This document shows positions 6,201-28,207 of a stretch of DNA of 34,340 nt, piece after piece (the first letter of the stretch is position 1; each line of letters opens with the position of its first letter). The stretch comes from Polyangiaceae bacterium (GTDB lineage Bacteria; Myxococcota_A; Polyangia; Polyangiales; Polyangiaceae), in the NCBI GenBank assembly GCA_036488725.1, contig DASXHD010000111.1, positions 80,760 through 115,099 of the forward strand, given 5' to 3'. The position numbers were made by a program, and so were the translations under genes. The notes beneath the pieces were generated by a model, which had not been told where the DNA came from, ran no database searches, and saw only the letters and a list, made by a program, of their open reading frames with translations.

Positions 6201-8876
6201 ACCGAGGGCGACCGCATGCTGCTCTTGGCCGACGCGCGCGTCGTGCTCGCGGCGTCGCGCGGCTCGCTCGCGCGACAGCTCCGGCGCATCACGGTCGAAG
6301 GCGCCGCGCGCCCCGCGGATCTCGTGCCGTCGCGGAAGGCCCAGGAGCTTCCGTCGCGAACGCCGCCGCGTCCGGCGCTCGGGTTCGACAACGGCATCGG
6401 CGGTTTCGCGGAAGGCGGACGCGAGTACGTCGCGACCGTGTCGGAGAGCTCACTCCCGCCGATGCCCTGGTCCAACGTCATGGCGCGCGCGCATTTCGGC
6501 ACGCTCGTCACCGAGAGCGGCGCGAGCTTCACTTGGTTCGAAAACAGTCAGCGCCATCGTCTCACGCCGTGGAGCAACGACCCGATTTCGGATCCGTCGG
6601 GAGAGACGTTCTTCTTGCGCGACGACGAAGACGGGAGCGTCTGGTCGCCGACGCCGCTCCCCGCCGGCGGCGACGCGACCTTCACCGTGCGTCACGGTCA
6701 GGGCTATTCGGTCTTCGAGCACACGCGCGGCGATCTCGCCGTCGAGCTGATCGTTTTCGTGAGCCCGAACGAGTGCGCGAAGACTTGGCGCATTCGCGTT
6801 CGCAACGAAGGCAAGCGCGCGCGGAGCCTCTCGCTCTTCGGCATCGTCGAGTGGGTGCTCGGCGAGACGCGCGAAAAGAGCCGCGTGTCGGTCATGACCG
6901 AGTGGGACGCGGCGGTGCCGGCGATTCTGGCGGAGAACCCGCTCTCGCTTCACCCGAATCGGCGCGCGTTCTTCACGGCGAGCGCGCCGATCGCGAGCGT
7001 CAGCGGCGACCGCGACGAGGTCTTCGGCGCAGCGGGCTCGCGCCGTCGACCCGTCGCGCTCGAGCGCGTGTCGCTCTCCAATCGCGTCGGGACCGGCCTC
7101 GACCCGTGCGCCGCGCTGCAGGTCCCCGTGAAAATCGCAGCAGGCGAGACGACGACGGTGTCGTTCGTTCTCGGCGAGAGCGACAGCGGCGACACGGCGC
7201 GCACCGTCGCGCGGCACCAGCGCGATCCCGCGGTCATCGAACGCGAGCTCGCCGAAGCGAAAGCCGCGTGGGATCGCATGCTCGGATCGATCGTCGTCCG
7301 CACGCCGGACAGCGCGTTCGACATGCTCGTCGGTCGCTGGCTCCTCTATCAGGTCGCGAGCTGCCGCGTCTTCGGTCGGAGCGCGTTTTATCAATCCGGC
7401 GGCGCGTACGGGTTTCGCGATCAAATCCAAGACGTGCTCGCGCTTCTCCACGCGCGGCCCGACGTCGCGCGCGAGCACCTCGTGCGATGCGCCGCGCGGC
7501 AGTTCCTCGAGGGCGACGTGCAGCACTGGTGGCACCCGAGCAGCGGCGAAGGCGTTCGCACGCGCTGCTCCGACGACATGCTGTGGCTGCCTTTCGCGGT
7601 CGCCGAGTACGTGCGTGTGACGGGCGACGAAAAGATCCTGGACGAGCGCGTGAGCTTCTTGAAAGAGCGACTGCTCGAGGCGACGGACGAAGACATTTTC
7701 AGCGCGCCGGCGATCACGCAAGAGAAGGCGACGCTCTACGAGCACTGCACGCGCGCGCTCGACCGCGGCGCGACGCAGGGGCCGCACGGGTTGCCCAAGA
7801 TGGGCGCGGGCGATTGGAACGACGGCATGAATCGCGTCGGGCGCGAGGGGTGCGGCGAGAGCGTTTGGCTCGCATTTTTTCTCGCCAAGACGCTGCGTGA
7901 TTTTTCAGCGGTGGCGCGCGCGCGCGGCGACGACGGACGCGTTCGCTGGTGCGAGGCCGAGGTCGATCGGCTCGGCGAGGCCGTCGACGCGTCGGCGTGG
8001 GACGGCGCGTGGTACCTCCGCGCGTTTTTCGACGACGGCACGCCGCTCGGCTCGCACGCGAACGTCGAGTGCCGCATCGACGCGATCGCGCAGTCGTGGG
8101 CCGTCGTCGCGGGCATCGGCGATCGCGAGCGCGCCGCGCGTGCGCTCGCGTCGGCCGAGAGCGAGCTCGTGAACGAGAACGCCGCGCTCATGCGTCTCTT
8201 GTGGCCGCCGTTCGAGAGCGCGCCGCCGGACCCCGGCTACATCCGCGCGTACCCGCGCGGCATCCGCGAGAACGGCGGACAATACACGCACGGCGTCCTC
8301 TGGACCGTGCTCGCGCTCGCGATGATGGGCCAAGGCGAGCGCGCGATGCGACTCTTCTCGATGCTGAACCCGGTGCACCACGGCGCGACGCGCGAAAGCA
8401 TCGAGCGCTACTGCGTCGAGCCGTACGTCGTCGCGGCCGACGTCTACGACGCGCCGGATCATGCCGACGGATCCGCCGAAGGCGGGACGTCGCAACCGAC
8501 AAACGTCGGTCGCGGAGGCTGGACTTGGTACACAGGCGCCGCTGGGTGGATGTACCGCATCGCGATCGAGCACATTTTGGGCGTGCGGCGCGAGGGCGCG
8601 CGGCTCGCGATCGATCCTTGCGTTCCGAAATCTTGGAAGCAATTCGAGATCGATTATCGCGACGGCGAGGGCGTCGTGCACGTCGTCGTCGAGAACCCGG
8701 ACGGCGTCGAGCACGGCGTCGCGCGCATCGAGATCGACGGACGCGAATCGGGGGACGGCGCGATCGCGCTGACCGGCGCACCCGGGCGACGCGAGGTGCG
8801 CGTCGTCATGGGGAAGGCTGCCGATAAGGGTGCGCGCGCCGATGAAACGGCACGACGTGCCGCACGATCAGCGTAG
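201..8876 (+). CDS. ndvB: Cyclic beta-1,2-glucan synthase-like giant membrane glycosyltransferase (GT domain + GH94-like phosphorylase domain), 2891 aa
   Basis: Single uninterrupted 8.7-kb ORF (GTG at 201; the true start may be slightly downstream). Multiple hydrophobic TM stretches (e.g. ALAVLTAVTWMALSPAGAALAALLFVPATEIALAF). Glycosyltransferase DxD region YVLTLDADTDLPRD. C-terminal GH94/cellobiose-phosphorylase-like region. Size and architecture match NdvB/ChvB/Cgs. Confidence 0.75.
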   Translation: MGRRLGGEPVPDLRLRLSLPLALGVGLRLLRAPAVGVAADQRWLAASGRVRRDVTIGESAVPIAPSPCPGVGLGTQWDDAAHLRGELHTAERLAHHAIEVARAHGVPSLAVPPGPLRQRFAVARERIARAYDILSRSSRARHEPSPAEEWLLDNSHVVDDQIREVQEDLPWGYLVELPRLAHGKMRGYPRVYGLCLDYLRHTDGRVDLPTLVSYVSAYQTVHQLAIGELWAIPIMLRVGLVLAASALAASEAGARDRERGETWAARVIERGRTPQRVATVLAQLEREDPPVTADLLVEIVRRLREHEAPLATAIDWVASHCGRMGISAEELVRRHHLKQAADQVSVGNAITSMRAIGALDWNAFFERTSTVEKLLRRDPARVYAAMDIATRDRYRHAVERIARRSSTDEPGVADAALRLAKRGRARRRELERGHVGYWLVGDGRAELEQRVHFRPPLDQRLTRAILRFPSAFYFGALAVLTAVTWMALSPAGAALAALLFVPATEIALAFLNSLVVAVVPPRVLPKMGWERGIPPEHRTLVVVPALLDGPDGVARLLESLEIRSLANLDDNLHFALLTDFCDADREHEPEDDALVAQVERGIADLDARWSRPGEHRYMLFHRRRVRDATGRWMGWERKRGKLEELNRLLRNGGDGTYEIVTAPRELLAHVRYVLTLDADTDLPRDTARKLAATMAHPLNRPRLSPTRARVARGHGVIQPRVGTRPDSARRTRWTRLASTPIGLDPYTTAVSDVYQDLFDQGSFVGKGIYDVDAFAAALDGRVPEGRLLSHDLFEGLFARSALASDIEVLDEQPSSYEVTAARQHRWIRGDWQMLPWLVSRDLTLLDRWKIFDNLRRSLVAPAIVVACSFGWLHGTLAAALATSALVAIFLVPVFTSAVLAATQARNPTAFVGAASADIAANALRSFIQTIFLLDATLLAVDAIGRTFWRLFLSRRRLLEWTTMSQSERRAGRSVHPRLVIAASLAVLGLVAVALRAPWDLPFAAPPLLLWAASPAVAWWLRKPEPEEAPTLAPLERKELRLVARRTWRFFETFVTEADHFLPPDNFQEDPRGVLARRTSPTNIGLYLLSVGAAHDFGFISLGEAVRRWNQTLDTLDKLTRHEGHILNWYDTATLAPLEPRYVSTVDSGNLAAYLWTVRETCEDLARAPCSIDAHLEAADDALALAVFAEPHDEIESLRAELASARAELTGDATHDRETLRAAAAALASALGEPWAQNGASDVQGGVRRAARLLADVIEERARLDAPEAREAMNASLHAVGERACALAEAMSFRFLLDEERKLFSIGYNVTTARLDAGFYDLLASEARLASLVAIAKGEAPQEHWFRLGRPRARVSRREGPVLLSWSGSMFEFLMPLLVTKNFEGTLLDQTYHAAVQRQMDYGVERAVPWGVSESAFNLMDLAMTYQYRAFGVPGLGLKAGLAEDLVVAPYATALAAQVRPRAAAENFRTLARMRALGAYGFYDAVDFTPRHLPPGRTSVLVKTFMAHHQGMTLVALDNALNGAPMQRRFHESTRIKSSELLLQERVPARAPLAQIHAAMLRTPQLNEPELDVAEHVGLGAHPTARLHLLGHGELSSAITVLGEGFTTWKGLDVHRFREDAAIEAGGLYVYLRDRESHRVWSAGFAPTRAEPDYYDVQLAIDRVEIVRRDGDIETTTEIVVSPERPAEVRRVTLANHGSSAREIELTTYAEVVLAPRAADVAHRAFVGMFVETEALPEQGALLARRRPRGESEEEVWLAQVLFAEGGAWQEGVEWETSRAKFVGRGHTTADPIALAAPLGKTTGAVLDPVLAMRRVVRLEPGGHARITLTSALATSREEALELVAISATPHILPRAFELAWADARVELRHLGVSAAQSHRFQRLLSAIVFPQPALRASIDRRDFDGHGRGGLWAHGISGDLPIVVVRIDHPDFADLFAELLRAHEFFRLNGVAIDLVALNEELPGYMQPQQQTLLSVVRASPGAARLDQRGGVFVRRMHEMTEGDRMLLLADARVVLAASRGSLARQLRRITVEGAARPADLVPSRKAQELPSRTPPRPALGFDNGIGGFAEGGREYVATVSESSLPPMPWSNVMARAHFGTLVTESGASFTWFENSQRHRLTPWSNDPISDPSGETFFLRDDEDGSVWSPTPLPAGGDATFTVRHGQGYSVFEHTRGDLAVELIVFVSPNECAKTWRIRVRNEGKRARSLSLFGIVEWVLGETREKSRVSVMTEWDAAVPAILAENPLSLHPNRRAFFTASAPIASVSGDRDEVFGAAGSRRRPVALERVSLSNRVGTGLDPCAALQVPVKIAAGETTTVSFVLGESDSGDTARTVARHQRDPAVIERELAEAKAAWDRMLGSIVVRTPDSAFDMLVGRWLLYQVASCRVFGRSAFYQSGGAYGFRDQIQDVLALLHARPDVAREHLVRCAARQFLEGDVQHWWHPSSGEGVRTRCSDDMLWLPFAVAEYVRVTGDEKILDERVSFLKERLLEATDEDIFSAPAITQEKATLYEHCTRALDRGATQGPHGLPKMGAGDWNDGMNRVGREGCGESVWLAFFLAKTLRDFSAVARARGDDGRVRWCEAEVDRLGEAVDASAWDGAWYLRAFFDDGTPLGSHANVECRIDAIAQSWAVVAGIGDRERAARALASAESELVNENAALMRLLWPPFESAPPDPGYIRAYPRGIRENGGQYTHGVLWTVLALAMMGQGERAMRLFSMLNPVHHGATRESIERYCVEPYVVAADVYDAPDHADGSAEGGTSQPTNVGRGGWTWYTGAAGWMYRIAIEHILGVRREGARLAIDPCVPKSWKQFEIDYRDGEGVVHVVVENPDGVEHGVARIEIDGRESGDGAIALTGAPGRREVRVVMGKAADKGARADETARRAARSA

Positions 8877-11721
8877 TGTCCTCGTGATCCCGCTCGACGA
8901 CGCCGTCGACGAGAAACGGTCCTGGGCTCGTGACCGGATCGCCGAGTGACGCGAAGGCGTCCGGCAAAATCACGACCTCGACGAGATCCGTTTCGTCCTC
9001 GAGCGTCACGAATTGCATTTTTCGGCGACCGCGCGTCTCGATGCGACGTGACGCGGCGACGATGCCCGCGATGCGCGCGCCTTCGCCGACGCGCTCGGCT
9101 AGCGATGCGATCGGAATCGCGCCGGCCGCGGCGGCCTCGGTGCGGAGCAATCGCATCGGATGATCCGAGACGTGCATGCCGAGAATGGCGACCTCGTTTT
9201 GGACGCGCACGAGGCCGCGATACAGATCGCCGCGCGGACCGCCCGCTGCGCGCGCGACGAAGCTCGCGAGCGACGGATCGCGTTTGCGCATCGCGAGGAG
9301 ATCCTCGTGCGCGATCGGATAACCGCGCGCGGAGAGCGGCGCGAGATCGTCGCACGCTCCCGAGAGGACGAGGGAACGGAGCTCACGGTCCGAGAGCGAC
9401 GTTCGCGCGAGCAAATCGCGCATGTCGGCGAACGGGCGCACCGCGAGGACCGCGGCGGCGTTTTTTTGGGTGAGGTGCGCGATGGCGCCCAGCCCGACGC
9501 GCACGGCGCCGTCCTCGACGACGTGGTCGATCGCCGAGCGCGCGACGTCGGGCCGCAAGATGGTGACGCCGGACCGCGCGAAGTCGGCCGCGATCGTCCG
9601 TAGCGGATACGCGCCGCCGTAATGATTGAGCACCGCGCACGCGAACGCCGCAGGCCGATGGACTTTCGCCCAGACCGATCGCCACGCGAGCTCGGCGTAG
9701 CTCGTCGCGTGCGCGCGACTGAACGAATAGGCCGCAAAACGCGCCAAATCCGGCCACGCGGCTTCGGCGCCCTCGATGACACGCCCGCGAAAATCGCGTT
9801 CGATCTCGGCGAGCGCCGCGGGATCTTCGTCAGCGCGAACGATCGCGGCGCGCATCGCGTCGGCCTCTTCGAGCGAGCCGCGCGTGAGCGTCGCGATGGC
9901 GCTGAGAATGTCCTCCTCGAAGAGGAGCATGCCGTGCGTGCGCGCGAGAAGCGGTCCGAGCGCCGGGTGCGGTGGCGACGCGGGCTCCTCGCCGTGCGCG
10001 CGCCGAACGAACGCGGCCTTCGCGTCACCCGAGCTCGGCCCCGGCCGCACGAGCGCGAGCGCGGTCGTCACGTCGTCTGCATCGCGAATCGGAAGCTTGC
10101 GCAAGACGGAGCGCGTCGCCGCGGTCTCGACCTGGAAGCAGCCGATGGTTTGCCCTCGCTCGAGCGCGGCGCGCGTCGCCGCGTCGTCGCCGGGCGCGGA
10201 GGAGACGCCGCACGCTTCGAGCGCGGCGAGCGCACGGTTGCCGAGCAAGTCGATCTTCAAGAGCCCGAGCTTTCCGATCGAGCGAAGATCGTACTGCGTG
10301 ACGAGGACGCCTTTCGGCGCGCGCTCGAGCGGCGTGTACGCGGTCAGCGGTCCGTCGCCGATCACGACGCCGCCCGGATGCACGGAGACGTGCTGGAGCT
10401 TGCCGACCGTGCGCTCGATGAGACCGACGTGCGGTTGCACGGCGTACGGCAGCGACGCGGTCGGAGGCGGCGCCTCCTCGTCCGTCATGCGCGCGCAAAA
10501 TCGGTCGACGTCCTCGCGGCGCATGCCGAGCGCCTTGAGGCCTTCGCGATATGCGGCGCGGCGGCGGAAAGTCTGATGCGTCGACAGCATCGCGACGCGA
10601 TCGCGGCCGAAGCGACGAAAGACCCAATCGACGAGTTCGTCGCGACGGTTCGAGGGCAAGTCGAGGTCGATGTCCGGCGGCTCCAGCCGCCCGGCGTGAA
10701 CGAATCGTTCGAAATGGAGACCGTGCACGATCGGGTCGATCGACGTGATGCCGAGCGCGAAGCAGACGAGCGAGCTCGCCGCCGAGCCTCGGCCTGCGAT
10801 CGCGATGCCCGCGGCGCGCGCGTGATCGGTGATCTCACGAACGACCCAAAAATACGGGGCGAGATGGAGGATGCGGATTGTCTCGAGCTCGCGCGCGAGG
10901 CGCGTTTCGTAGGCGACGCCGCGGCCGCAGATCGCCTCGCGACACGCGGCAGCGAGCTTTTCGTCGGCGTCGGGTACGTCCGGGACGACGCGTGTCGTCT
11001 CGCACAAGTCGAGCGTGCATGCTTCGGCGACCGCGCGTGACTCGGCGAGCGCATCGGGGGCGTCGCGAAAAAGATCGGCCCACGGCGCGAGGAGGGCGCG
11101 CTCGTGCGATTCGGCGCCCGTCGCGTCGCGAACGCGCATCCGGCGGCGAATCGCAAAGAGAAGTCGATGAAGATCGGCGTCGTCGGGCGAGAGCATGACC
11201 GCGTCGACGTCGGCGACCGCGCGCACACGCGACGGCGGTTCTGCGCCGGCTCGCGCGAGCAAAAATCGAACGTCGTCCGGCGCGACGCCGCGCGCGAGGA
11301 GCGACTCGAGCGTCTCGACGTCGTCGCTCAGATAAAAAATACCGCGCGGCTCGTCCTCGAGACACTCGAGCGGATCGCCCGTCTCGCCCGCCACCGTTCG
11401 ACGCCGCGTGACGATGCGGCAGAGGCTCTCGTAACCGGCGCGATCGCGCGCGAGCAACACGAGCCGCCCGCGTTTTTCGCCGACGGCGTGCGGCCCGAAC
11501 CCGCGACGAAGCTCCACGCCGGTGATCGCGCGAATCCCCGCGTCTCGCGCGGCGTGATGAAGCTCGACCTGCGCGTACAAATTTTCGAGGTCGGTCAGCG
11601 CGACCGCACCGCAGCCGAGCCGAGCCGCCGCACGCACGAGCTCGCGCGGCGACGCGGTCCCGTACCCTGCGGAGCGATCGCTCTTCGTGTGCAGGGGTAC
11701 GAACGTTGCGTCCTTCGTCAC
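8806..11721 (-). CDS. dnaE2: Error-prone DNA polymerase III alpha-like (DnaE2/ImuC-type C-family polymerase), 971 aa
   Basis: N-terminal degenerate PHP domain (FVPLHTKSDRSAGYG...ALTDLENLY). DnaE palm/finger motifs GLLKIDLLGNRALAAL and IGCFQVETAATRSVL. GTG start at 11719-11721. Size is below replicative DnaE and fits DnaE2. Confidence 0.8.
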   Translation of the reverse strand: MTKDATFVPLHTKSDRSAGYGTASPRELVRAAARLGCGAVALTDLENLYAQVELHHAARDAGIRAITGVELRRGFGPHAVGEKRGRLVLLARDRAGYESLCRIVTRRRTVAGETGDPLECLEDEPRGIFYLSDDVETLESLLARGVAPDDVRFLLARAGAEPPSRVRAVADVDAVMLSPDDADLHRLLFAIRRRMRVRDATGAESHERALLAPWADLFRDAPDALAESRAVAEACTLDLCETTRVVPDVPDADEKLAAACREAICGRGVAYETRLARELETIRILHLAPYFWVVREITDHARAAGIAIAGRGSAASSLVCFALGITSIDPIVHGLHFERFVHAGRLEPPDIDLDLPSNRRDELVDWVFRRFGRDRVAMLSTHQTFRRRAAYREGLKALGMRREDVDRFCARMTDEEAPPPTASLPYAVQPHVGLIERTVGKLQHVSVHPGGVVIGDGPLTAYTPLERAPKGVLVTQYDLRSIGKLGLLKIDLLGNRALAALEACGVSSAPGDDAATRAALERGQTIGCFQVETAATRSVLRKLPIRDADDVTTALALVRPGPSSGDAKAAFVRRAHGEEPASPPHPALGPLLARTHGMLLFEEDILSAIATLTRGSLEEADAMRAAIVRADEDPAALAEIERDFRGRVIEGAEAAWPDLARFAAYSFSRAHATSYAELAWRSVWAKVHRPAAFACAVLNHYGGAYPLRTIAADFARSGVTILRPDVARSAIDHVVEDGAVRVGLGAIAHLTQKNAAAVLAVRPFADMRDLLARTSLSDRELRSLVLSGACDDLAPLSARGYPIAHEDLLAMRKRDPSLASFVARAAGGPRGDLYRGLVRVQNEVAILGMHVSDHPMRLLRTEAAAAGAIPIASLAERVGEGARIAGIVAASRRIETRGRRKMQFVTLEDETDLVEVVILPDAFASLGDPVTSPGPFLVDGVVERDHEDTTLIVRHVVPFHRRAHPYRQPSP

Positions 11722-12380
11722 CGATGGCTCGGCAACCTAAGACCGAAATGAGCGCGCTGCCATTTCTGCCGAAAAAACGAGTGACGCTCGCGACGCTCGC
11801 CGACGCAGCGCGAGCGTGCCGCGGATGCCCGCTCTACGCGCGCGCGACGCAGACCGTGTTCGGCGCGGGCCCGGCGAGCGCGCGCGTGATCCTCGTCGGC
11901 GAGCAGCCGGGCAACGACGAAGATTTGAGAGGCGCGCCGTTCGTCGGCCCGGCCGGACGCGTGCTCGACAAGGCGCTCGCCGCGGCGCACATCGATCGAC
12001 GCGAGACCTACGTCACCAACGTCGTGAAGCACTTCAACTGGGTCGCGACGACCGGCAGCCGGCGCCTGCACAAGAAACCGTCGTCGCGCGAAGTCTCGGC
12101 GTGCTTGCCGTGGCTCGAAGAAGAAATCGTTCTGATCAAACCAGACGTCGTCGTTCTTCTCGGCGCGACCGCGGCGCAAGCCATCCTCGGGCGAGATTTC
12201 CGCGTCACGAAAGACCGCGGCAAGCTCCTCGCGACGCGCTTTGGAGCACGTGCGCTCGCGACGGTGCACCCCTCGTCGATCCTTCGGCAGCGAACGCACG
12301 AAGACCGCGCGCGCGAGACGGAGCGCTTCGTCGCGGACCTCGCCGTCGTCGCCAAGCTCATTCACCGCAGAGCGGCGTGA
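11706..12380 (+). CDS. udgX: UdgX-like family-4 uracil-DNA glycosylase (covalent uracil-DNA binding type)
   Basis: GEQPGNDEDLRGAPFVGPAGRVLDKAL (family-4 motif A). VHPSSILRQ (motif B). An R-loop insertion VVKHFNWVATTGSRRLHKKPSSREVSACLPW closely parallels the UdgX KRRIH loop, with the His retained. TTG at 11706; in-frame ATGs at 11724 and 11748 are more likely starts. Confidence 0.8.
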   Translation: MRPSSPMARQPKTEMSALPFLPKKRVTLATLADAARACRGCPLYARATQTVFGAGPASARVILVGEQPGNDEDLRGAPFVGPAGRVLDKALAAAHIDRRETYVTNVVKHFNWVATTGSRRLHKKPSSREVSACLPWLEEEIVLIKPDVVVLLGATAAQAILGRDFRVTKDRGKLLATRFGARALATVHPSSILRQRTHEDRARETERFVADLAVVAKLIHRRAA

Positions 12381-12381
12381 A

Positions 12382-13392
12382 TCAAATCTCGGCGCTGTGC
12401 AGCCACTTCGGGTGACTCGCGGTGCTGTCGTATTTGTCGGCGGTCTTGAAGAGCTCGTACTTTCCGCTGAGCGCCGCGTCGCGCGTGCGCCGCAGGAGAT
12501 CGGCGATCTGATCCTCGTCGAGCGGCTTGAAGTTTTGCGCGACGTGGATCGCCTGGTTCAAGATTGGCATCGAGTCGCACCCGGTGATGACGACGTTGGT
12601 CGGCAAACTGAGTGCATACTGCAAACATTCGACGGCGGTCACGGTCTTGCTCTTCAGGAGATCGCCCGAGCCGATCGGCTTCATGCTGCAGATCCCGAGG
12701 CCCTTGCGGCGCGCGACCGGCAGCACGTTGTGCTGAAAGCTCCGGAAGTGCGCGTCCATCACGTTGAGCGGCATCATGATCGTGTCGAACGTGAAGCCGT
12801 GTTGTTCGGCGACGGCGAGCATCTCGAGGTGGATGCTCGGATCTTTGTGGCCGGTGAAGCCGATGAACCGGAGCTTGCCGGCTTTGCGCGCTTCGAGGAG
12901 ACCTTCGATCGCGCCGCCGGGCGCGAAGACCGCGGTCGGATCGCTCGAGCGAATGACCTCGTGGATCTGCACGAGATCGATGTGATCGGTGCGAAGGCGC
13001 TGGAGCGATTGCTCGAGCTGCTTTTGCGCGGAGTCTTTGTCGCGACCGTCGACCTTGGTCATCAGGAACGCGCGCTGGCGCCAGCCGCCCTCGAGCGCCT
13101 TGCCCATGCGTCGCTCGCTGTCGCCGCCGTGGTAGTCCCAGCTGTTGTCCATGAACGTCACACCGTGATCGATTGCGCTGCGCACGATGCGGATGGCCTC
13201 GTCCTCGGTGTGCGTCTCGCCGAGGTGCGAGCCGCCGATGCCGATGCGCGAGATGGTCTCGCCGGTGCGGCCGAGCACGTTGGTCGGAATGCCGCCCTTC
13301 ACGGGCGCGGACGTGAGGCTCGGCGGCGGATCGTTCTTCGCGCAAGCCGCGAGCACGACCGTTCCTGCGATGAAGCTTCGACGCGAAATCAT
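12382..13392 (-). CDS. Aldo/keto reductase family oxidoreductase, Tat-signal lipoprotein
   Basis: AKR fold signature (GIGGSHLGE..., IRIVRSAIDHGVTFMDNSWDYHGG, HIDLVQIHE). N-terminus MISRRSFIAGTVVLAACA has a twin-arginine motif plus an LAAC lipobox. The track ORF extends to 13539, but an ATG at 13392 gives a proper signal peptide. Confidence 0.75.
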   Translation of the reverse strand: MISRRSFIAGTVVLAACAKNDPPPSLTSAPVKGGIPTNVLGRTGETISRIGIGGSHLGETHTEDEAIRIVRSAIDHGVTFMDNSWDYHGGDSERRMGKALEGGWRQRAFLMTKVDGRDKDSAQKQLEQSLQRLRTDHIDLVQIHEVIRSSDPTAVFAPGGAIEGLLEARKAGKLRFIGFTGHKDPSIHLEMLAVAEQHGFTFDTIMMPLNVMDAHFRSFQHNVLPVARRKGLGICSMKPIGSGDLLKSKTVTAVECLQYALSLPTNVVITGCDSMPILNQAIHVAQNFKPLDEDQIADLLRRTRDAALSGKYELFKTADKYDSTASHPKWLHSAEI

Positions 13393-13432
13393 CCGCCGAT
13401 GCGGTGCACGCGTCGTACCATGCGGCCCAGCC

Positions 13433-14746: not shown

Positions 14747-14786
14747 GCGCAGTCGACAGCGGCGAATCGAGCCCTACCCTTTCGCG

Positions 14787-15260
14787 ATGACCGCTCCGAA
14801 ACCCGTCGCGATCCTCGCCGCCGAAGCTCCGCCCCGCACGAAACCGTCGAATTACCCCGAGCCGTTCGCCTCGCGCATGAAGGGGCGGGAAAAGCGGCCT
14901 TTGGGCGATCTCTTCGGTTTGAAAAATTTCGGCGTGAACCTCACGCGGCTCGCGCCGAACGCTTCGTCCGCGCTTCGACACGCACACTCGAAACAAGACG
15001 AATTCGTCTACGTGCTCGAAGGACGCCCGACGCTCCACACCGGCGCCGGCAAGACGCGTCTCGCTCCCGGCATGTGCGCCGGGTTTTCAGCGGGCGGCGA
15101 CGCGCATCGTTTGATCAACGAGACGACCGACGACGTCGTCTACCTCGAGATCGGCGACCGCACGCCGGGCGACGAAGGCTCGTATCCGGACGACGACATT
15201 CGCGCCGAGCTCGTGGGCGGCGCGTGGCGTTTCGTGCACAAAGACGGCACGCCTTATTGA
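14787..15260 (+). CDS. Cupin-domain protein
   Basis: 157-aa ORF with a cupin-like beta-barrel signature (HAHSKQDEFVYVLEGRPTLHTGAG...GMCAGFSAGGDAHRLIN). It lies 40 bp downstream of the Prim-Pol gene on the same strand. Confidence 0.6.
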   Translation: MTAPKPVAILAAEAPPRTKPSNYPEPFASRMKGREKRPLGDLFGLKNFGVNLTRLAPNASSALRHAHSKQDEFVYVLEGRPTLHTGAGKTRLAPGMCAGFSAGGDAHRLINETTDDVVYLEIGDRTPGDEGSYPDDDIRAELVGGAWRFVHKDGTPY

Positions 15261-15991
15261 GCGCTGAACGGCTCGAGGCCGATTTCGAGCGGCCGCTCGG
15301 GCGTCGCGGCCATCTCGAGGTGCGCCTCGCGCGTCGTGCGGTAGTCGCTCGGCGCGTCCTCGCCGAGCCGTCGCGCGAGGCCGCGCGCGAAGACGAGCTC
15401 GTGCGGCGCGATCCACTCGACGCGCACGCGCGCAGGCTCGCACACCGAGACGCCGCGCTCGGAGAGGAACTGCACGACGTCCTCGCTGCCGTCGATCGTC
15501 GGCCACTCGCGCTGGTGATCGCGCGGCATGTGCCAGCGCGCGCCGTCGAGCTGCACGACGACCTTCGCGCCGGCGCCGTCTTCGAGCGTGATCGCATCGG
15601 CGGAGCGACTCTCGAAGAGGATCTTGTCGGGATGGTCCGACGCCGTGACGACCACGCGATAAAAAATGCACGGCGGCGCCCCGAGCGGTGCGTGCCGCGC
15701 GTGCTCGGTGAAACCGACGAGCCCCGCGGCCGTGACGAGGCCCGGCTCGAGGCTCGCGAGCGGCGTCGGCATCGCGCCGAGCTTCGCGCGCGGCGTGCGA
15801 CGCGGGGCACGCCGAATCACTTCGCGCGCGAGGATGCCGACCGAGACCATTCCGACCGTCGCGGCGACGAGCGCTTTCACTTGATGCAAGTGCAGCAGAA
15901 TCCAACCGACGACGATGAGACCGGTTCCGAGGATCAGAAAGAGCCCGCTGAACGCGCAACCGAAGCCGTCGTCGTCGTCGTCGTCCAGCAC
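15254..15991 (-). CDS. Hypothetical membrane protein with poly-Asp N-terminus and two TM helices
   Basis: GTG start directly abutting the ligase stop. MLDDDDDDGFG, then hydrophobic helices (FSGLFLILGTGLIVVGWILLHL; ALVAATVGMVSVGILA). No recognisable catalytic motifs. Confidence 0.45.
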   Translation of the reverse strand: MLDDDDDDGFGCAFSGLFLILGTGLIVVGWILLHLHQVKALVAATVGMVSVGILAREVIRRAPRRTPRAKLGAMPTPLASLEPGLVTAAGLVGFTEHARHAPLGAPPCIFYRVVVTASDHPDKILFESRSADAITLEDGAGAKVVVQLDGARWHMPRDHQREWPTIDGSEDVVQFLSERGVSVCEPARVRVEWIAPHELVFARGLARRLGEDAPSDYRTTREAHLEMAATPERPLEIGLEPFSAQ

Positions 15992-17068
15992 TCAGCCTCC
16001 GAAAATCTTGGCGACCTCGTACGGCGGCGTCACGTCGAGCTGGGCGTAGGTGCAATCTTTCGGTTCTTTGTCGGGTCGCCATCGCTTGAAGTGCGTCGCG
16101 TGGCGGAAGCGGCGGCCCTGCATGTGATCGAACGAGACCTCGCACACGCGCTCGGGGCGAAGCGGCTCCCACGACAAATCTTTGTTCGCGTTCCAACGGC
16201 TCTTCATGCCGGGTTTTCGCTGCGCGGCTTGCGCGTCGTCGTGCTCTTTCCAGTCGGCCCACGGGTGATTCGCGAGCGCGTTCTCGCGGAGCGGCGCGAG
16301 CTCGGCGACGAGCTCCTTGCGACGCTCGGTCTTGAACGACGAGCAGATGCCGACGTGCTGCAGGTCCCCGCTGTCGTCGTAGAGGCCGAGCAAGAACGAG
16401 CCGATCGCTTCTTCCTTCGAGCCCTTGTACCAGCGGAACCCGGCGAGCACGCAGTCGCACGTGCGCTCGTGCTTGATCTTGAGCATCGTGCGCTTGCCGG
16501 GCGAGTAGACGAGATTTTCGTCTTTCGCGACGACGCCGTCGAGGCCCGCGCCTTCGAAGCGATTGAACCAATCCGTCGCGAGCGCGCGGTCGCGCGTCGC
16601 GGGCGTCAGGTAAATCGGCGGCGTCGCTTTGCCGAGCGCGGCCTCGAGGCTCGCGCGGCGTTCTTTTTGCGGGCGCGCGCGAAGATCGTCTTCGCCGAGC
16701 GCGAGCATGTCGAACGCGACGTACGACGCGGGCCACTGCGACGCGAGCATCTTGATGCGCGACTCGGCCGGGTGAATGCGCTGAAGCAGCGCCTCGAACT
16801 GGAGCGCGCCGTCGCGCGCGATCACGATTTCGCCGTCGAGCACGCAGCGCTCGGGGATCTGCGCGCGGAGCGGTGCGGCGAGCTCGGGAAAGTAACGCTG
16901 GAGCGGCTTGAGATCGCGGCTCTGAATCTGAACGTCGTCGCCGTCGCGAAAAACGATCGCGCGAAACCCGTCCCACTTGGGCTCGAAGATGAAATTCTCG
17001 CTCTCGGGAATGCCGCTCGTGAGCTTGGCGAGCATCGGCTCGATCGGCGGTTGGAAAGGGAGCTTCAT
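15992..17068 (-). CDS. ligC: Stand-alone ATP-dependent DNA ligase (LigC-like, ~358 aa)
   Basis: Motif I adenylation lysine in EPKWDGFRAIVF. Downstream nucleotidyltransferase and OB-domain motifs (DGEIVIA, VAFDML, EGLVAKD, KIKHERTCDCVLAGF). Start ATG at 17066-17068 (MKLPFQPPIEPM) overlaps the stop of the upstream gene (ATGA). The track ORF extends to 17317 with a GTG start. Confidence 0.85.
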   Translation of the reverse strand: MKLPFQPPIEPMLAKLTSGIPESENFIFEPKWDGFRAIVFRDGDDVQIQSRDLKPLQRYFPELAAPLRAQIPERCVLDGEIVIARDGALQFEALLQRIHPAESRIKMLASQWPASYVAFDMLALGEDDLRARPQKERRASLEAALGKATPPIYLTPATRDRALATDWFNRFEGAGLDGVVAKDENLVYSPGKRTMLKIKHERTCDCVLAGFRWYKGSKEEAIGSFLLGLYDDSGDLQHVGICSSFKTERRKELVAELAPLRENALANHPWADWKEHDDAQAAQRKPGMKSRWNANKDLSWEPLRPERVCEVSFDHMQGRRFRHATHFKRWRPDKEPKDCTYAQLDVTPPYEVAKIFGG

Positions 17069-17817
17069 AGTTTGGCCGTCCACTTGTAGCCGCCGCCCGG
17101 CTTGCTCGTGAGCTCGACGTTGCCGTGCATCGGTTTCTTGTCGCGCGTCGTGAACGTGCACGTCGCCTTGCCGCCGCTGAACACGACCGGACCCGCGCCG
17201 CAATCGACGTCGACGCCGCTCGGGTGCTTGGCCTTCGCCGTGTCGCCGACCGATTTCGTGAGGTCGGCGGACAGGTCTTCGCCCTTTCCCACCGGCGCGT
17301 CGAGCGTGGTCGACCACTCACCCCACGTGCCGTCGGTGTCGACTTTGGTGCGCTCGACCTGCGCGGTCACGCTCGCGCCGTTGTCGCCCGCGAGCGTGCA
17401 GCTCGTCTTCGTGTCGGCGTCGGCGATCTCGGGACAAGTGCACTTCGTGAACGCGAACTTGGCGTAATTTTTCTCGAGCGACTTTTCGACTTCTTGGCGA
17501 TTGGTGAGCACCGGCGCCGGCGGCACGATCGGCGTCGGCTCGTAACACATCTCTTCGCGCGAGCTCGAGCCGGGGAAGCGCGTGACCGTGCCCGAGCAGC
17601 TCGACGCGCCTTTCATCGCGGTGAAGGCGAACGTGAACGGACCTTTGAACGTGACCTTCGGGCTCGCGTATCCGTCGGCCTCGAGATCGGAGCGCACCGT
17701 CGCCCACGATTTGAGCACCCAAAGGCCCGGAACGAGAACGAGCAGCGCGACGACCCCGAGAGCGATGAGCCCGGGCCCCAAGCTCGAGCGTGGCTTCGGC
17801 GTCGGCGCGTAGTTCAC
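17065..17817 (-). CDS. Signal-anchored secreted protein with tandem Cys-pair (DUF4333-like) repeats
   Basis: N-terminal TM/signal segment LIALGVVALLVLVPGLWVL. Two repeats with paired cysteines (CTCPEIADADTKTSCTLAGDNGASVTAQV and DCGAGPVVFSGGKATCTFTT) resemble actinobacterial DUF4333 lipoprotein domains. Its stop overlaps the ligase start. Confidence 0.5.
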   Translation of the reverse strand: MNYAPTPKPRSSLGPGLIALGVVALLVLVPGLWVLKSWATVRSDLEADGYASPKVTFKGPFTFAFTAMKGASSCSGTVTRFPGSSSREEMCYEPTPIVPPAPVLTNRQEVEKSLEKNYAKFAFTKCTCPEIADADTKTSCTLAGDNGASVTAQVERTKVDTDGTWGEWSTTLDAPVGKGEDLSADLTKSVGDTAKAKHPSGVDVDCGAGPVVFSGGKATCTFTTRDKKPMHGNVELTSKPGGGYKWTAKL

Positions 17818-17843
17818 GTGCGGATGCTACACGAACGTCGACG

Positions 17844-18449
17844 ATGAAGTGCAGCACGCTTCAGCTCGGTTTGTTCGCGCGCGAGCCGCTCGCGATCGAC
17901 GAGACGTTCGCGCGCGCCGAACGCGTGGAGCTCGGACCGAACGCGTGGGTCGAGATCGTGCGCGGGTGGGTCCGCGGCGATCGCGAGCTCTTCGATCACC
18001 TCGTCGCGACCGCGCCATGGCGCGACGAAGAGCGCGTCATGTACGACCACGTCGTCGCCGTCCCTCGGCGCATCGCCGTGCTCGATCGCTTGCATTCTAC
18101 AATCATTCGCGTGCGTGAATCGCTGGACGCGCGCTACGCGACGAGCTTCGAGCGGATCAGCGTGGCGCACTACCGCGACGGCCGCGACAGCGTCGCGTGG
18201 CACGGCGACTATGTCGCGCGCAAGCTCGACACCGCGCTCGTCGCGACCGTCTCGCTCGGCTCGCCGCGGCGCTTTTTGATTCGGCCCAAAGGCGGCGGCC
18301 CGTCGCGCGCGTGGACGCTCTCGGGCGGCGATCTCGTCGTGATGGGCGGGACGTCGCAACGCACGCACGAGCATTCGGTTCCCAAAGTCGCGAGCGCGGG
18401 GCCGCGCGTCGCGCTCATGTTCCGTCCGGTCTGGCACGAGCCGACGTAA
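17844..18449 (+). CDS. alkB: AlkB-family Fe(II)/2-oxoglutarate-dependent DNA/RNA demethylase
   Basis: HxD...H triad and flanking AlkB motifs: VAWHGDYV, VSLGSPRRFLIRPKGG, GDLVVMGGTSQRTHEHSV, RVALMFRP. Track ORF is 17790-18449; the ATG at 17844 (MKCSTLQ) is the likely start. Confidence 0.8.
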   Translation: MKCSTLQLGLFAREPLAIDETFARAERVELGPNAWVEIVRGWVRGDRELFDHLVATAPWRDEERVMYDHVVAVPRRIAVLDRLHSTIIRVRESLDARYATSFERISVAHYRDGRDSVAWHGDYVARKLDTALVATVSLGSPRRFLIRPKGGGPSRAWTLSGGDLVVMGGTSQRTHEHSVPKVASAGPRVALMFRPVWHEPT

Positions 18450-18458
18450 GATGATCGC

Positions 18459-19862
18459 ATGCGCCGCTCGGCCCTCGTCGTCCTCGCGATGGTCGCGGTC
18501 ACCGCGCGCTGCGACACGAAGCCCGGCGCGCGCACGTGCGTCATCGTGCCGCCGCAAACTGATTTTCGGCTGACGACGAGCGGAACGAATTTCGTCGACA
18601 GCCTCGGCCGCATCGTCATCTTGCGCGGCGTCGACGCGGGCACGCGGAGCAAGTTCGCGCCGTTCGTTCCGTTCGATTTCGGCGACGACTACGAAGGTGC
18701 ACTTGCAAAATACATGGATCATGCCGCGTCGTGGGGCGTGGACGTCTTCCGCGTGCCGTGGGTTTGGGCGGCGCTCGAGCCGACGCAAGGTCAAGACGAC
18801 GCGACGTGGCTCGGTCGCTTCGACGAATTCATCGACGCCGCGTGGGCGCGCGGAATCTGGACAGTGCTCGACTTTCATCAGGACGTGTACTCCGAAAATT
18901 TTTGCGGCGACGGCTTCCCCGGTTGGACGCTGACGAATCCGCCCGCGCCGCATCACGACTGCGCCGTTTGGTCGACGGCCTACGCGACCGACCCGGTGAA
19001 GGCGGCGTTCGATGCCTTCTGGTCGGACGCGGGCGGCGTACAAACGGCTTATTTTTCGGCCTGGGACGTGATGATTGCAAGATACAAGGATCGTCCGGGC
19101 GTCCTCGGCTTCGAGCCGATCAACGAGTGCTCTGGCGGCTCGCAAGACGACGACACGTTCTCGGCGACGACGCTCTCGGATTTTTACGCCAAGTTCGTCG
19201 CGCACGCGCGCTCGCTCGCGCCCGAGTCGCTCGTCTTCCTCGAGCCGAGCGGAACGAGCGGCGTGACGCTCGCGACGACGCTCGTGCGCCCGCCCGGCGA
19301 CGGCATCGTCTTCGCGCCGCACTTCTATCCGCTCGATGCGCGCCCCGAGAGCGTGCAAGACAACTTGCAAAAGCTCCAAGCGATCGGCGCCGCGTGGAAC
19401 GTCCCCACGTGGGTCGGCGAGTTCGGCGCGACGAACCTCCTCGACTCGACGCCCGCGCGCATGCAAGCGACGTGGGCCGCGATGGACGCGCTCGGCGTGA
19501 GCGGCACCGAATGGGAGTACAGCACCGCGACCGAGCTCTGGGACGCCGAGTCGTGGTCGCTCACCGACGCGAGCGGAAACGATCTTCCGGTCGCCGCGGC
19601 CATCTTGCGTCCCTACGCGCGCGCGATCGCCGGCACGAGCCCGTCGATGGGCTTCGACACGACGACGAGCACGTTCTCCCTCGCCTACGCGCCGACCGGC
19701 GGCATCACACAAGTCTCGCTGCCCGCTCGCGCGGCGCCGAACGGCTGGGACATCGCACTCGAAGGCGCCTGCTGCGACGCAACGACCGTCCCCGGCCAAA
19801 TGCTCATCCAACCCGATCCAACCGCAACGAACGTATCTCTCTCCATCACGCCAAAGAATTAG
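18459..19862 (+). CDS. Secreted glycoside hydrolase family 5 (cellulase / endoglycoceramidase-like)
   Basis: Signal peptide MRRSALVVLAMVAVTARC. GH5 catalytic acid/base region GFEPINEC. Typical (beta/alpha)8 spacing, with a second Glu region around VGEFG. Confidence 0.7.
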   Translation: MRRSALVVLAMVAVTARCDTKPGARTCVIVPPQTDFRLTTSGTNFVDSLGRIVILRGVDAGTRSKFAPFVPFDFGDDYEGALAKYMDHAASWGVDVFRVPWVWAALEPTQGQDDATWLGRFDEFIDAAWARGIWTVLDFHQDVYSENFCGDGFPGWTLTNPPAPHHDCAVWSTAYATDPVKAAFDAFWSDAGGVQTAYFSAWDVMIARYKDRPGVLGFEPINECSGGSQDDDTFSATTLSDFYAKFVAHARSLAPESLVFLEPSGTSGVTLATTLVRPPGDGIVFAPHFYPLDARPESVQDNLQKLQAIGAAWNVPTWVGEFGATNLLDSTPARMQATWAAMDALGVSGTEWEYSTATELWDAESWSLTDASGNDLPVAAAILRPYARAIAGTSPSMGFDTTTSTFSLAYAPTGGITQVSLPARAAPNGWDIALEGACCDATTVPGQMLIQPDPTATNVSLSITPKN

Positions 19863-21595
19863 GAAGCGCGCGCCGCGCGATGCTCACGGACGCGCTCGAG
19901 CGGCTGCGCGGTCAAGACGTGCTCTTTGCCGAGCCAACCGCGGCGCGCGATGCCGACGCCGAATTTCAAGAACGTGAGCTCGCGCGTCGAGTGCGCGTCC
20001 GAGTCGATGACCACGCGCACGCCCATCTCGCGCGCCATGCGCAGGCCGTTCTCCGGCACGTCGAGGCGAAGCGGCGAGGAGTTGAGCTCGATCGCGACGC
20101 CGGTTTTCGCGAGCGCGCGGAGCACAGCCTCGAGATCCAGATCGCTCCCGTCGCGCTGGCCGAGCATGCGCCCGAACGGGTGACCGAGCGCGTCGATGCG
20201 GCCCGACTCGATCGCGCGGACGACGCGCTTGGTCATCTCTTCGCGCGGCATGCCGAGCTTGGAGTGCACGCTCCCGACGACCCAGTCGAGCTTCGGAAGA
20301 TCGTCGGCGAGGTCGAGCGATCCGTCGCCGAGAATGTCGGTCTCGATGCCCGCGAGCACGCGAATCGTGTCGCCGACCTTTTCGTCGACCGCGCGAATGT
20401 TCTTCACGTGCTCGCGCAGGCGCTCCGCCGAGAGACCGTTTGCGATCGTGAGCGACACCGAGTGATCGGTGATGGCGATGTACTTGCGACCGGCCTCGCG
20501 CGCCGCGAGCGCCATCTCTTCGATGCTCGCGCGCCCGTCGCTCTCGGTCGTGTGCATGTGGAGATCGCCGATCAGGTCGGCGAGCTCGACGAGCACGGGC
20601 AGCGCGTTCGCCTTGGCCGCTTCGATTTCGCCCCGATTTTCCCTGATTTCAGGCGGCATCCACCGAAGACCGATCGCCTCGTAGACGGCTTCTTCGGTCT
20701 GACCAGCGATTGATTTTTCGTCCGGATCGAAGACGCCGTACTCGCTCACTTTGAGTTTTTTCTTCACCGCGAGCGTGCGCATCGCGACGTTGTGATCTTT
20801 CGATCCGGTGAAGTATTGCATCGCTGCGCCGAACGATGCGGGCGGCACGACGCGCAAGTCGGATTGGATTCCGCTCCGCAGGACGACGCTCGTCTTGGTC
20901 TCGCCGCGCGCGAGGACTTCGGCGACTTGAGGCATCGACGCGAACGACTCCATGATGGCCGGCGCGGCCGAGGCGTCGGCGGCGACGAGCACGTCGAGAT
21001 CGCCGACCGTCTCGCGCCGCCGCCGCAAGCTCCCGGCGAACTCGCACTGCACGACGCCCGGGACGGCGCGCATGCGCGCGACGATGCCTTCGGCGATCCC
21101 GAGCGCTTCGGCCATCGGCCAACGCTTGGGCGCCGACGCGCGCGCGCGCCACGCGGCGATCGACGTGAGCAGCTTCTCTTCGCGCTTCTGTCCGAAGCGC
21201 GGCAGGTCCCTGAGCTTTCCTTCTTTCGCGGCCGCCTCGAGCGCGTCGACGGTCGTGATGCCGCGCTCTTTCCAAACTTGCTGCGCCGTCTTCACGCCCA
21301 TGCCCGGAACGTTCATGAGCTCGGCCACGCCGGGCGGGAGCTTCGCGCGAGCTTTCTCGAGATCGTCGAGCTTGCCCGTCTCGACGAGCTCGGTGATTCG
21401 CCGCACGGCGCCGTCGCCGATCCCGGCAGTTTTTCCGAGCGTGCCCGCTTTCACTTTCGGCGCGATCGCCTCGCCCATTCCTTCGATCGCGCGCGCCGCG
21501 GCGCGAAACGCGCGCACTTTGAACGGCACCTCGCCGAGCAGCTCGAGCACGTCGGCCAGATCGAGGAACGCAGCCGCGATGGCGTCGTTGTCCAC
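19859..21595 (-). CDS. polX: DNA polymerase X family protein with C-terminal PHP phosphoesterase domain
   Basis: Pol beta-like N-terminus with HhH motifs (LMNVPGMGVKTAQQV). Nucleotidyltransferase GSLRRRRETVGDLDVLV. PHP domain LHMHTTESDG...AITDHS...DSDAH. Convergent 4-bp overlap with the GH5 gene. Confidence 0.85.
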   Translation of the reverse strand: MDNDAIAAAFLDLADVLELLGEVPFKVRAFRAAARAIEGMGEAIAPKVKAGTLGKTAGIGDGAVRRITELVETGKLDDLEKARAKLPPGVAELMNVPGMGVKTAQQVWKERGITTVDALEAAAKEGKLRDLPRFGQKREEKLLTSIAAWRARASAPKRWPMAEALGIAEGIVARMRAVPGVVQCEFAGSLRRRRETVGDLDVLVAADASAAPAIMESFASMPQVAEVLARGETKTSVVLRSGIQSDLRVVPPASFGAAMQYFTGSKDHNVAMRTLAVKKKLKVSEYGVFDPDEKSIAGQTEEAVYEAIGLRWMPPEIRENRGEIEAAKANALPVLVELADLIGDLHMHTTESDGRASIEEMALAAREAGRKYIAITDHSVSLTIANGLSAERLREHVKNIRAVDEKVGDTIRVLAGIETDILGDGSLDLADDLPKLDWVVGSVHSKLGMPREEMTKRVVRAIESGRIDALGHPFGRMLGQRDGSDLDLEAVLRALAKTGVAIELNSSPLRLDVPENGLRMAREMGVRVVIDSDAHSTRELTFLKFGVGIARRGWLGKEHVLTAQPLERVREHRAARAS

Positions 21596-28185: not shown

Positions 28186-28207
28186 TGGTTCTCCTCGAAA
28201 TGGAGCA

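Follow-up and report, generated by a model that had tools for sequence, protein, structure and literature searches.

What brings six genes for the processing of DNA damage together within about 13 kb of a soil myxobacterial genome, and does a single pathway hold them there? The locus that raises this question lies in a 34,340-nucleotide stretch of DNA from a Polyangiaceae bacterium (GenBank assembly GCA_036488725.1, contig DASXHD010000111.1, positions 80,760 to 115,099), the whole of which was analysed and is referred to here as the window. An earlier reading of the sequence, the original prediction, had placed genes for DnaE2, UdgX, a primase-polymerase (Prim-Pol), a LigC-like ligase, AlkB and PolX between positions 8806 and 21595, with a few unrelated genes among them, and had proposed that they act in a coordinated pathway. 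Our gene calls, made from third-position GC bias (GC3 plot) together with Pfam and NCBIfam scans of the window, located all six genes at these positions (a DnaE-type polymerase, UdgX, a Prim-PolC-type Prim-Pol, a LigC-type ligase, an AlkB-family dioxygenase and a PolX with a PHP domain), and motif inspection indicated that each product retains its catalytic signature. The unrelated genes between them, encoding an aldo/keto reductase (AKR), a cupin, two membrane proteins and a GH5 glycoside hydrolase, were also confirmed.

The best explanation for the region, and in our judgement the probable one, is that it is a lineage-specific neighbourhood of separately conserved repair modules, rather than one operon or mobile island. 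It is best read as three parts: an ancient DnaE-like/UdgX cassette, a LigC/Prim-PolC module with PolX as a frequent neighbour, and a locally linked AlkB-family gene. The strongest signal, which was absent from the original prediction, is that the genes for UdgX and the DnaE-type polymerase stand back-to-back and co-vary across phyla.

UdgX and its DnaE-type polymerase partner

The UdgX protein scores 253.3 bits on TIGR03914, above the NCBIfam cutoff of 189.95 and hence within the class, matches the solved UdgX of Mycobacterium smegmatis (PDB 6iod/6ail) with 214 bits, and is 100% identical to a protein named UdgX at NCBI, from a Polyangiaceae metagenome-assembled genome (MAG). The class has been defined by the motif GEQPG (with Q for A/G), a KRRIH-type R-loop with the crosslinking histidine, and HPS(S/A)(L/V)(L/V)R (PMC10359453). 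Our alignment gives GEQPG as motif A, SRRLH as the R-loop and HPSSILR as motif B, and the histidine of SRRLH falls opposite H109 in the RRIH of the M. smegmatis enzyme. We infer that the gene encodes a uracil-DNA binding/crosslinking glycosylase of the UdgX class, with a predicted crosslinking activity. All class-defining motifs, including the crosslinking histidine, are shared with M. smegmatis UdgX; what differs is the context, since the udgX gene of the window lies head-to-head with a polymerase gene.

The start codons of this divergent pair are only 2-26 bp apart, depending on whether UdgX begins at the ATG at 11724 (the long form, which agrees with the N-termini of relatives) or at 11748, as called in the database (P0001); the polymerase begins with a GTG at 11721 on the minus strand. 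The corresponding gap is 2 bp in a relative from a soil metagenome (L082) and 22-40 bp in loci of other phyla. So short a gap implies that the promoters lie inside the coding sequence of the partner or that the mRNAs are leaderless.

The polymerase comprises PHP, DNA_pol3_alpha, finger, HHH_6 and OB domains (Pfam) and ends at the OB fold, with no C-terminal extension. Its palm is intact (PDIDLD, KIDLLG), while the HxH of its PHP domain has degenerated to H-T-K, and it is accordingly predicted to be catalytically intact and proofreading-dead. The label DnaE2 given to it in the original prediction is approximate: this is indeed a DnaE-type polymerase, but its best NCBIfam model, the 'error-prone DNA polymerase' NF004225, gives 498 bits against a cutoff of 939, short of the DnaE2 family threshold, and the DnaE1 model NF004226 gives 453 bits, also below cutoff. 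In a neighbour-joining tree rooted on Escherichia coli DnaE1, the UdgX-adjacent polymerases including that of the window form one clade, apart from the ImuAB-linked DnaE2 cluster. Identity to the window protein is 43-73% within its own clade, 29-31% to ImuAB-linked DnaE2 and 28% to E. coli DnaE1. Four UdgX-adjacent members of the clade score about 480-590 bits on both the DnaE1 and the DnaE2 model, with 483-588 on the latter, under both cutoffs, and an ImuAB-linked DnaE2 reaches 1216 bits on the error-prone polymerase model. The references for DnaE2A, DnaE2B and DnaE2X (supplement of PMC12926913) match the window protein weakly (47-135 bits), as N-terminal 400-aa fragments. As a possible internal beta-clamp motif, we considered a conserved L-x-G-F-like patch at the position of E. 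coli QADMF, which is too degenerate to call.

The comparison with the ImuA-ImuB-DnaE2 (ImuC) system is instructive on both sides. In each, the C-family polymerase looks accessory, with about 1000 aa, an intact palm and a PHP domain that is dead, but the window polymerase fails the DnaE2 cutoff, belongs to a separate clade about equally distant from ImuAB-linked DnaE2 and from E. coli DnaE1, and lacks any partner in cis of the ImuA, ImuB, Y-family or ImuB-C kind. Indeed, homologues of Y-family polymerases, ImuB and ImuA were absent from 21 clade loci plus the window (about 340 kb), in a search that detected its positive controls. In a survey of bacterial polymerases from 2026, the partners given for DnaE2 are ImuA/ImuB, Y-family polymerases (whether active or inactive), ImuB-C and RecA; some DnaE2B enzymes are left partnerless, and we could find no mention there of uracil or of uracil-DNA glycosylase (UDG) (PMC12926913). 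The constant neighbour of the window-type polymerase, UdgX, is thus a partner unlisted for the ImuAB-DnaE2, DnaE2B and DnaE2X modules, and the pair adds to this catalogue of DnaE2-based systems, with its Y-family, ImuB-C and RecA partners, a candidate module that contains a glycosylase.

The wider distribution of the pair was read from a census of one-genome-per-species contigs searched with a UdgX alignment, in which the best 80 of at least 519 relatives were examined with up to 10 kb of flank; neighbours were read by tblastn with the window proteins, by clustering of open reading frames (ORFs) and by a scan of cluster representatives. The dominant neighbour of UdgX is a DnaE-type polymerase cassette, a DnaE-type, ImuA or ImuB gene lying within 5 kb in 35 of the 80 loci; 30 of the 80 are truncated in the flank. 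The polymerase is directly divergent from UdgX in 12 loci, with a gap of 22-95 bp (about 800 bp in Nannocystis). These 12 come from Polyangiaceae, Nannocystis, Gemmataceae, Gemmatimonadales, Obscuribacterales and a Pseudomonadales MAG, so that the direct pair occurs in at least five phyla (Myxococcota, Planctomycetota, Gemmatimonadota, Melainabacteria and Gammaproteobacteria). In about 19 further loci, from Acidobacteriota and Verrucomicrobiota, UdgX and imuA-imuB-dnaE2 diverge, and lexA usually flanks UdgX on its other side; in 4 loci the cassette is convergent downstream of UdgX. The UDG genes beside the census polymerases carry the UdgX motifs, including the R-loop histidine. No other family recurred beyond single lineages in a Pfam census of 145 other UdgX neighbours, the lineage-specific recurrences being an FAD oxidase, EamA and DUF72. 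The association was also seen from the side of the polymerase: of five polymerase homologues (41-56% identical) that were picked independently, four have a UdgX-type gene next to them.

The distances of UdgX and polymerase co-vary within the clade (Mantel r=0.86, p=5e-4), and both trees group the window with Gemmataceae, Gemmatimonadales and Nannocystis, and not with two other Polyangiaceae MAGs. This co-variation and tree placement suggest that the two genes have been inherited, and occasionally transferred, as a unit. The DnaE-like/UdgX pair thus appears to be a deeply conserved core that has moved between phyla as one piece.

In a few lineages the surroundings of UdgX include further repair genes. 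Locus L136 (1-8230) opens with a gene for a LigD_N phosphoesterase; PolX and UdgX come next, sharing one strand and only 9 bp apart, and the DnaE-like polymerase diverges from them and is followed by a dUTPase/dCTP-deaminase and a second, short UDG-superfamily gene without UdgX motifs. In a Pseudomonadales MAG (L057, 9941-16793), the co-directional order is UdgX-DUF72-AKR-LigD-Ku-Ku, with a full-length LigD (phosphoesterase, ligase and polymerase domains). Eight loci from Acidobacteriota, the majority of them of Pyrinomonadaceae, carry PolX at a distance of 6-8 kb from UdgX. These independent accretions hint, weakly, at a functional tie of UdgX to gap-filling and ligation enzymes. Some smaller features of the surroundings may be recorded as well. 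Motif A of the L057 UdgX reads GEMPG, and DUF72 stands beside UdgX in two further loci (3 of the 145 neighbours scanned). A bacterial type IB topoisomerase gene is found 0.7-4 kb from UdgX in Rokubacteria (L134 and L135) and on pMl3 of Sinorhizobium medicae (L140), two unrelated lineages; this enzyme likewise forms covalent protein-DNA intermediates.

Possible roles of the UdgX-polymerase pair

UdgX has found wide use as a biotechnological reagent, serving in base editing, in the mapping of uracil and in the conjugation of DNA to protein. Its physiological role has been termed 'largely unknown' (PMC10359453), its gene neighbourhood is not discussed in the UdgX literature that we searched, and our search found no paper naming UdgX together with DnaE2, ImuA or ImuB. 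The recurrent head-to-head placement of udgX with a translesion-type polymerase gene, belonging either to the stand-alone DnaE-like clade or to a lexA/imuA-imuB-dnaE2 cassette, is therefore a testable clue to what UdgX does in the cell.

A mechanism can be proposed along the following lines. In stressed or non-growing cells, UdgX would excise uracil and remain covalently bound, via the histidine of its R-loop, to the abasic sugar, and the bound protein would shield the abasic site from cleavage. The dedicated DnaE-like polymerase could then bypass, or re-synthesise across, the UdgX adduct or its proteolysed remnant; a RecA-dependent or proteolytic resolution of the adduct has been suggested (PMC10359453). 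Alternatively, the adduct might be excised; Prim-PolC or PolX would then fill the short gap, and LigC would seal it. AlkB would reverse alkyl lesions independently. This scheme takes the observed gene identities, motifs, geometry, conservation and co-variation as its starting point, and it presumes the enzyme activities, the order of the steps, co-regulation and a physical contact between UdgX and the polymerase.

A functional analogy is provided by the SRAP/YedK/HMCES family, covalent binders of abasic sites that are encoded beside translesion polymerase cassettes: SRAP was first noted as a neighbour of SOS mutagenesis operons (PMC3765255) and later shown to crosslink to abasic sites (PMC6821365). 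Fold and chemistry are unrelated (a cysteine thiazolidine versus the His-C1' bond of UdgX), UdgX itself makes the abasic site from uracil, and the gene map of the window contains no SRAP gene.

It is possible, if doubtful, that UdgX and the unclassified DnaE-type clade go further than this and constitute a two-gene, horizontally mobile damage-tolerance module, in which the UdgX adduct is the dedicated entry point or substrate of the polymerase. Within such a module, UdgX may also be the recruiting factor, in place of ImuA/ImuB. Were this true, it would amount to a new kind of bacterial mutasome and give UdgX a physiological role.

The reverse order of events, with UdgX acting after the polymerase to police misincorporated dUMP or ribonucleotides in error-prone patches, is the explanation that has been proposed for SOS-regulated operons encoding UDG domains (PMC4951493, PMC8565304), and the dUTPase and second UDG gene by the polymerase of L136 would fit it, suggesting control of uracil incorporation. 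We consider it unlikely here, because UdgX, as a suicide enzyme with a single turnover, ends in a crosslink of protein and DNA (PMC4787834, PMC10359453) and would make a poor cleaner of misincorporated bases, and because the UDG genes beside these polymerases retain the crosslinking histidine. In those operons, a radical-SAM protein and a UDG domain of the same subfamily are LexA-regulated in Verrucomicrobia, Alphaproteobacteria and Bacteroidetes (PMC4951493, PMC8565304), so that the tie of the subfamily to the SOS response is in part known already. The radical-SAM/DUF4130/UDG operon (TIGR03916/TIGR03915/TIGR03914) shares with the window the UDG subfamily TIGR03914, but the window UdgX is stand-alone, paired with a polymerase, and has neither a radical-SAM nor a DUF4130 partner.

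Against the reading of the region as separately conserved modules with the UdgX-polymerase pair as their core, several observations have to be set. Fifteen of the 80 UdgX loci have at least 5 kb on both sides and no polymerase cassette. The 80 loci are those most similar to the window UdgX, which biases the census to one UdgX subclade, and many come from related lineages, so that the counts are not independent events; the co-variation of UdgX and polymerase could, in part, stem from shared species history. A collection of plasmids yielded 395 records with UdgX homologues, mostly rhizobial chromids, and the one annotated locus inspected there, on a Sinorhizobium chromid, has no polymerase neighbour. 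The characterised udgX of M. smegmatis is not known to lie beside dnaE2 either. That the UdgX-linked polymerase is accessory and not replicative is deduced from its length, degenerate PHP domain and model scores. The complete 13-kb order survives only in company with the unrelated genes (see below). Lastly, the window has no lexA gene and no LexA box of the Myxococcus xanthus type above chance level, so that its sequence offers no sign of damage induction.

The search for that box (CTRHAMRYBYGTTCAGS, up to 3 mismatches) gave 7 matches against 11.5 expected, none in the cluster, with a consensus that is of the M. xanthus type and may not be that of the host. A sigma-70 promoter and terminator scan of 8.5-22 kb returned 0 promoters, and terminators at chance level, and is uninformative at the 68% GC of the window. 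The LexA-box and promoter scans found no regulatory motif shared by the six repair genes, nor did inspection of the DnaE-like/UdgX junctions across phyla reveal a common operator motif. Two repeats in acidobacterial loci, mostly Pyrinomonadaceae, are candidate operators: a TATAGG(N)CCTATAGG-like repeat in the imuA/UdgX intergenic region, about 60 bp upstream of UdgX (L048, L072, L074 and L077), and a GTTC-N7-GTTC direct repeat (ATGTTCGAGAATGTTCG) that precedes lexA (L047, L052, L063, L071 and L077).

The other repair genes and gene order in relatives

The second part of the region is made up of the Prim-Pol and the ligase. The Prim-Pol scores 289.5 bits on PF21686, is stand-alone, with no ligase or phosphoesterase domain in its ORF (Pfam), and carries the motifs DLD, SGSRGIH and FLDYNQN and a conserved C-terminal tail of about 100 aa. 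Its match to M. smegmatis Prim-PolC (PDB 6sa0/5op0) reaches 364 bits, versus 132 for the polymerase domain of M. tuberculosis LigD (2iru) and 100 for 2fao. The ligase (518.7 bits on NF006078, NCBIfam cutoff 296) consists of adenylation and OB domains only (PF01068 and PF04679), with a KWDG adenylation motif and no fusion to polymerase or phosphoesterase domains. The claim that the two genes are of the LigC/Prim-PolC rather than the LigD type was thus borne out, as was the absence of Ku and of a LigD phosphoesterase: tblastn of the window with two Ku proteins, two LigD phosphoesterase domains, ImuA, ImuB and LexA as queries found none. The archaeo-eukaryotic primase-type polymerase and the ATP-dependent ligase of the window are homologous to domains of LigD, the enzyme of Ku-dependent non-homologous end joining, but the window has no Ku, phosphoesterase domain or fusion, whereas the distant UdgX locus L057 has a full LigD and two Ku genes.

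In mycobacteria, LigC and Prim-PolC form a gap-filling complex of base excision repair (PMC5663958), and the window genes are best taken as this known pair for filling and sealing short gaps, with activities predicted from homology. The window shares with the mycobacterial system (Plocinski 2017, PMC5663958; Brissett 2020, PMC7442782) a stand-alone polymerase of this superfamily and a stand-alone LigC-type ligase encoded by neighbouring genes, with no local Ku or phosphoesterase and with other excision-repair genes close by. It differs in that the host is a myxobacterium and in that the two genes are convergent, not co-transcribed, and 1.25 kb apart, with the cupin and a membrane-protein gene between them; LigC appears to be coupled to two membrane proteins, and there is no co-transcribed glycosylase such as Fpg. 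LigC begins within the stop codon of the first membrane-protein gene (TM250), an ATGA overlap at 17065-17068, and its own stop codon directly adjoins the start of the second (TM245). TM250 is therefore probably the first gene of a TM250-LigC-TM245 operon, the sole tight co-directional run in the cluster, and LigC appears to be translationally coupled to these two uncharacterised membrane proteins. A LigC operon associated with the membrane would be unusual. Homologues of the two proteins occur beside LigC elsewhere, that of TM245 (60% identical) after LigC in L126 and that of TM250 (74% identical) upstream of it in L130.

A LigC-centred scan of metagenomes returned 48 loci. Nineteen related loci have Prim-Pol no more than a few kb from LigC, in several of them directly adjacent and convergent; PolX is close to LigC in 7, and at 52-67% LigC identity the convergent LigC/Prim-Pol pair alone persists. 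The PolX of the window scores 492.3 bits on NF006375 (cutoff 426), with HHH_8, thumb, palm and PHP domains and the motifs GDLDVLV, DLRVV and HMH. What the cluster offers apart from the UdgX-polymerase pair is, in the main, an extension to Myxococcota of the LigC/Prim-PolC(/PolX) repair neighbourhood known from Actinobacteria. The AlkB-family protein scores 53.9 bits on PF13532 (2OG-FeII_Oxy_2, cutoff 31.2), has no NCBIfam match, and shows the motifs WHGD, HEH and RVALMFR, with HxD, H and R retained in an alignment with ALKBH3. Its gene and the TM250-LigC operon point away from each other across 26 bp.

Is the whole cluster, then, a single co-regulated base-lesion pathway or regulon, selected as a 13-kb unit? 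The original prediction leaned this way, and its expectation that the genes should not be scattered in a close relative was upheld: a relative from a soil metagenome (L082, L083, L084 and L087) keeps the order Cgs, DnaE-like/UdgX, AKR, Prim-Pol, LigC/AlkB-like, GH5 and PolX, at protein identities of about 60-80% (DnaE-like 60%, UdgX 73%, AKR 67%, Prim-Pol 78%, LigC 80%, AlkB-like 73%, GH5 61%, PolX 76%), Cgs being the cyclic beta-1,2-glucan synthase of the flank (65%). A DLH-type hydrolase has been gained there, and an M28 peptidase takes the place of TM245 (L082). Since the unrelated Cgs, AKR and GH5 genes are kept equally well, this synteny is no evidence of selection for the repair cluster. 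The number of repair genes is, in itself, far above chance: with a rough binomial estimate that assumes 1.5% repair genes in a genome of 8000 genes, at least six among 11 consecutive genes are expected about 4e-5 times per genome, and a chance origin of the grouping is unlikely. The independent joining of PolX, LigD-type and Ku genes to UdgX-polymerase pairs elsewhere also speaks for a common pathway.

In spite of this, we give the single-pathway interpretation little credence. The six genes alternate between strands, and hence are not an operon; the genes of the cluster make up at least seven transcription units on both strands, among which our scans found no common operator or promoter motif. 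The modules also separate in relatives. Two loci with LigC identities of 80% (L086, PolX-GH5-LigC-PrimPol) and 79% (L090, PolX-LigC-PrimPol) have no AlkB-like gene, and no UdgX or DnaE-like gene in the approximately 8 kb beyond PrimPol. The AlkB-like gene is likewise missing in L085 and L088 (LigC 80-86%), where GH5 stands beside LigC, so that GH5 stays by LigC in more close relatives (L085, L086 and L088) than the AlkB-like gene does, and the AlkB linkage is lineage-specific. In more distant Polyangiaceae and Nannocystis, only the DnaE-like/UdgX pair persists. The proposal of a coordinated pathway is partly supported: it gains some weight for UdgX and the DnaE-type polymerase, as a conserved, co-varying divergent pair, and the independent accretions of PolX or LigD-type genes back it more weakly.

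That the neighbourhood is meaningless, a product of neutral synteny and chance juxtaposition or a recent genomic island, is very improbable and largely refuted for the two core modules. In its favour, synteny extends equally to the non-repair genes, 5 kb downstream there is a tRNA-Arg with an integrase and a stretch of low GC, and GC is slightly lower in the cluster (0.65-0.68) than in its flanks (0.69-0.70). Against it, the chance estimate is very low, the DnaE-like/UdgX and LigC/Prim-PolC linkages recur across phyla or many lineages, and an island origin of the cluster was rejected since the integrase island starts at the tRNA (26.8 kb), with housekeeping genes between, and the chromosomal Cgs flank is conserved in relatives.

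Feature map and flanking genes

Table 1. Genes of the repair region and its upstream flank, with positions in the window.
Feature	Position	Strand	Basis
GH94 cyclic beta-1,2-glucan synthase (Cgs), 2891 aa	201-8876	+	Pfam/NCBIfam annotation
DnaE-type C-family polymerase ('UdgX-associated DnaE-like'), 971 aa	8806-11721	-	Pfam, NCBIfam, tree, motifs
DnaE-like/UdgX start-codon junction	11722-11747		sequence
UdgX, 218 aa (210 aa from 11748)	11724/11748-12380	+	TIGR03914, alignment, PDB match
Aldo/keto reductase (AKR), twin-arginine-like signal	12382-13392	-	Pfam, start codon, synteny
Prim-PolC-type primase-polymerase, 437 aa	13433-14746	+	PF21686, PDB matches
Cupin_2 protein	14787-15260	+	Pfam
Membrane protein TM245, 245 aa	15254-15991	-	without family match (Pfam, NCBIfam)
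LigC-type ATP-dependent DNA ligase, 358 aa	15992-17068	-	NF006078, Pfam, PDB
Membrane/lipoprotein-like protein TM250, 250 aa	17065-17817	-	weak DUF4333 match
AlkB-family 2OG-Fe(II) dioxygenase, 201 aa	17844-18449	+	PF13532, ALKBH3 alignment
GH5 glycoside hydrolase	18459-19862	+	Pfam
Bacterial PolX with C-terminal PHP, 578 aa	19859-21595	-	NF006375, Pfam

Very short gaps are a feature of the divergent pairs throughout the region (Table 1): besides DnaE-like/UdgX and TM250/AlkB-like (17818-17843), AKR and Prim-Pol are separated by 40 bp (13393-13432). Such tight packing points to transcripts without leaders, or to promoters placed inside coding sequence, across the whole region. Close relatives keep the AKR gene in place, and nothing points to a role for it in repair. 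The cupin has a 90% identical counterpart in L126, the single metagenome fragment to carry it, and in L082 another ORF takes its place. On the upstream side, the 3' ends of Cgs and of the DnaE-like gene converge and overlap by 71 bp (8806-8876), and the overlap is similar in the relative L084 (62 bp).

Genes for an alpha/beta hydrolase, an acyltransferase and an acyl-CoA dehydrogenase lie downstream of the cluster, followed by the tRNA-Arg, the integrase and the lower-GC stretch. The tRNA-Arg (CCG; 26779-26855), the sole match in an Rfam scan of the window, overlaps the 3' end of the tyrosine-integrase gene (26785-28284, minus strand). Past the integrase come a weak match to a Dam-like methyltransferase (28411-29046) and ORFs without family matches, in a stretch whose GC falls to 0.62-0.63; the feature as a whole (26779-31200) has the look of an integrated element that is distinct from the repair cluster. 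Three sizeable, coding-looking ORFs of the window (21600-22744, 29324-30700 and 30752-32770) have no Pfam match at E<=0.01.

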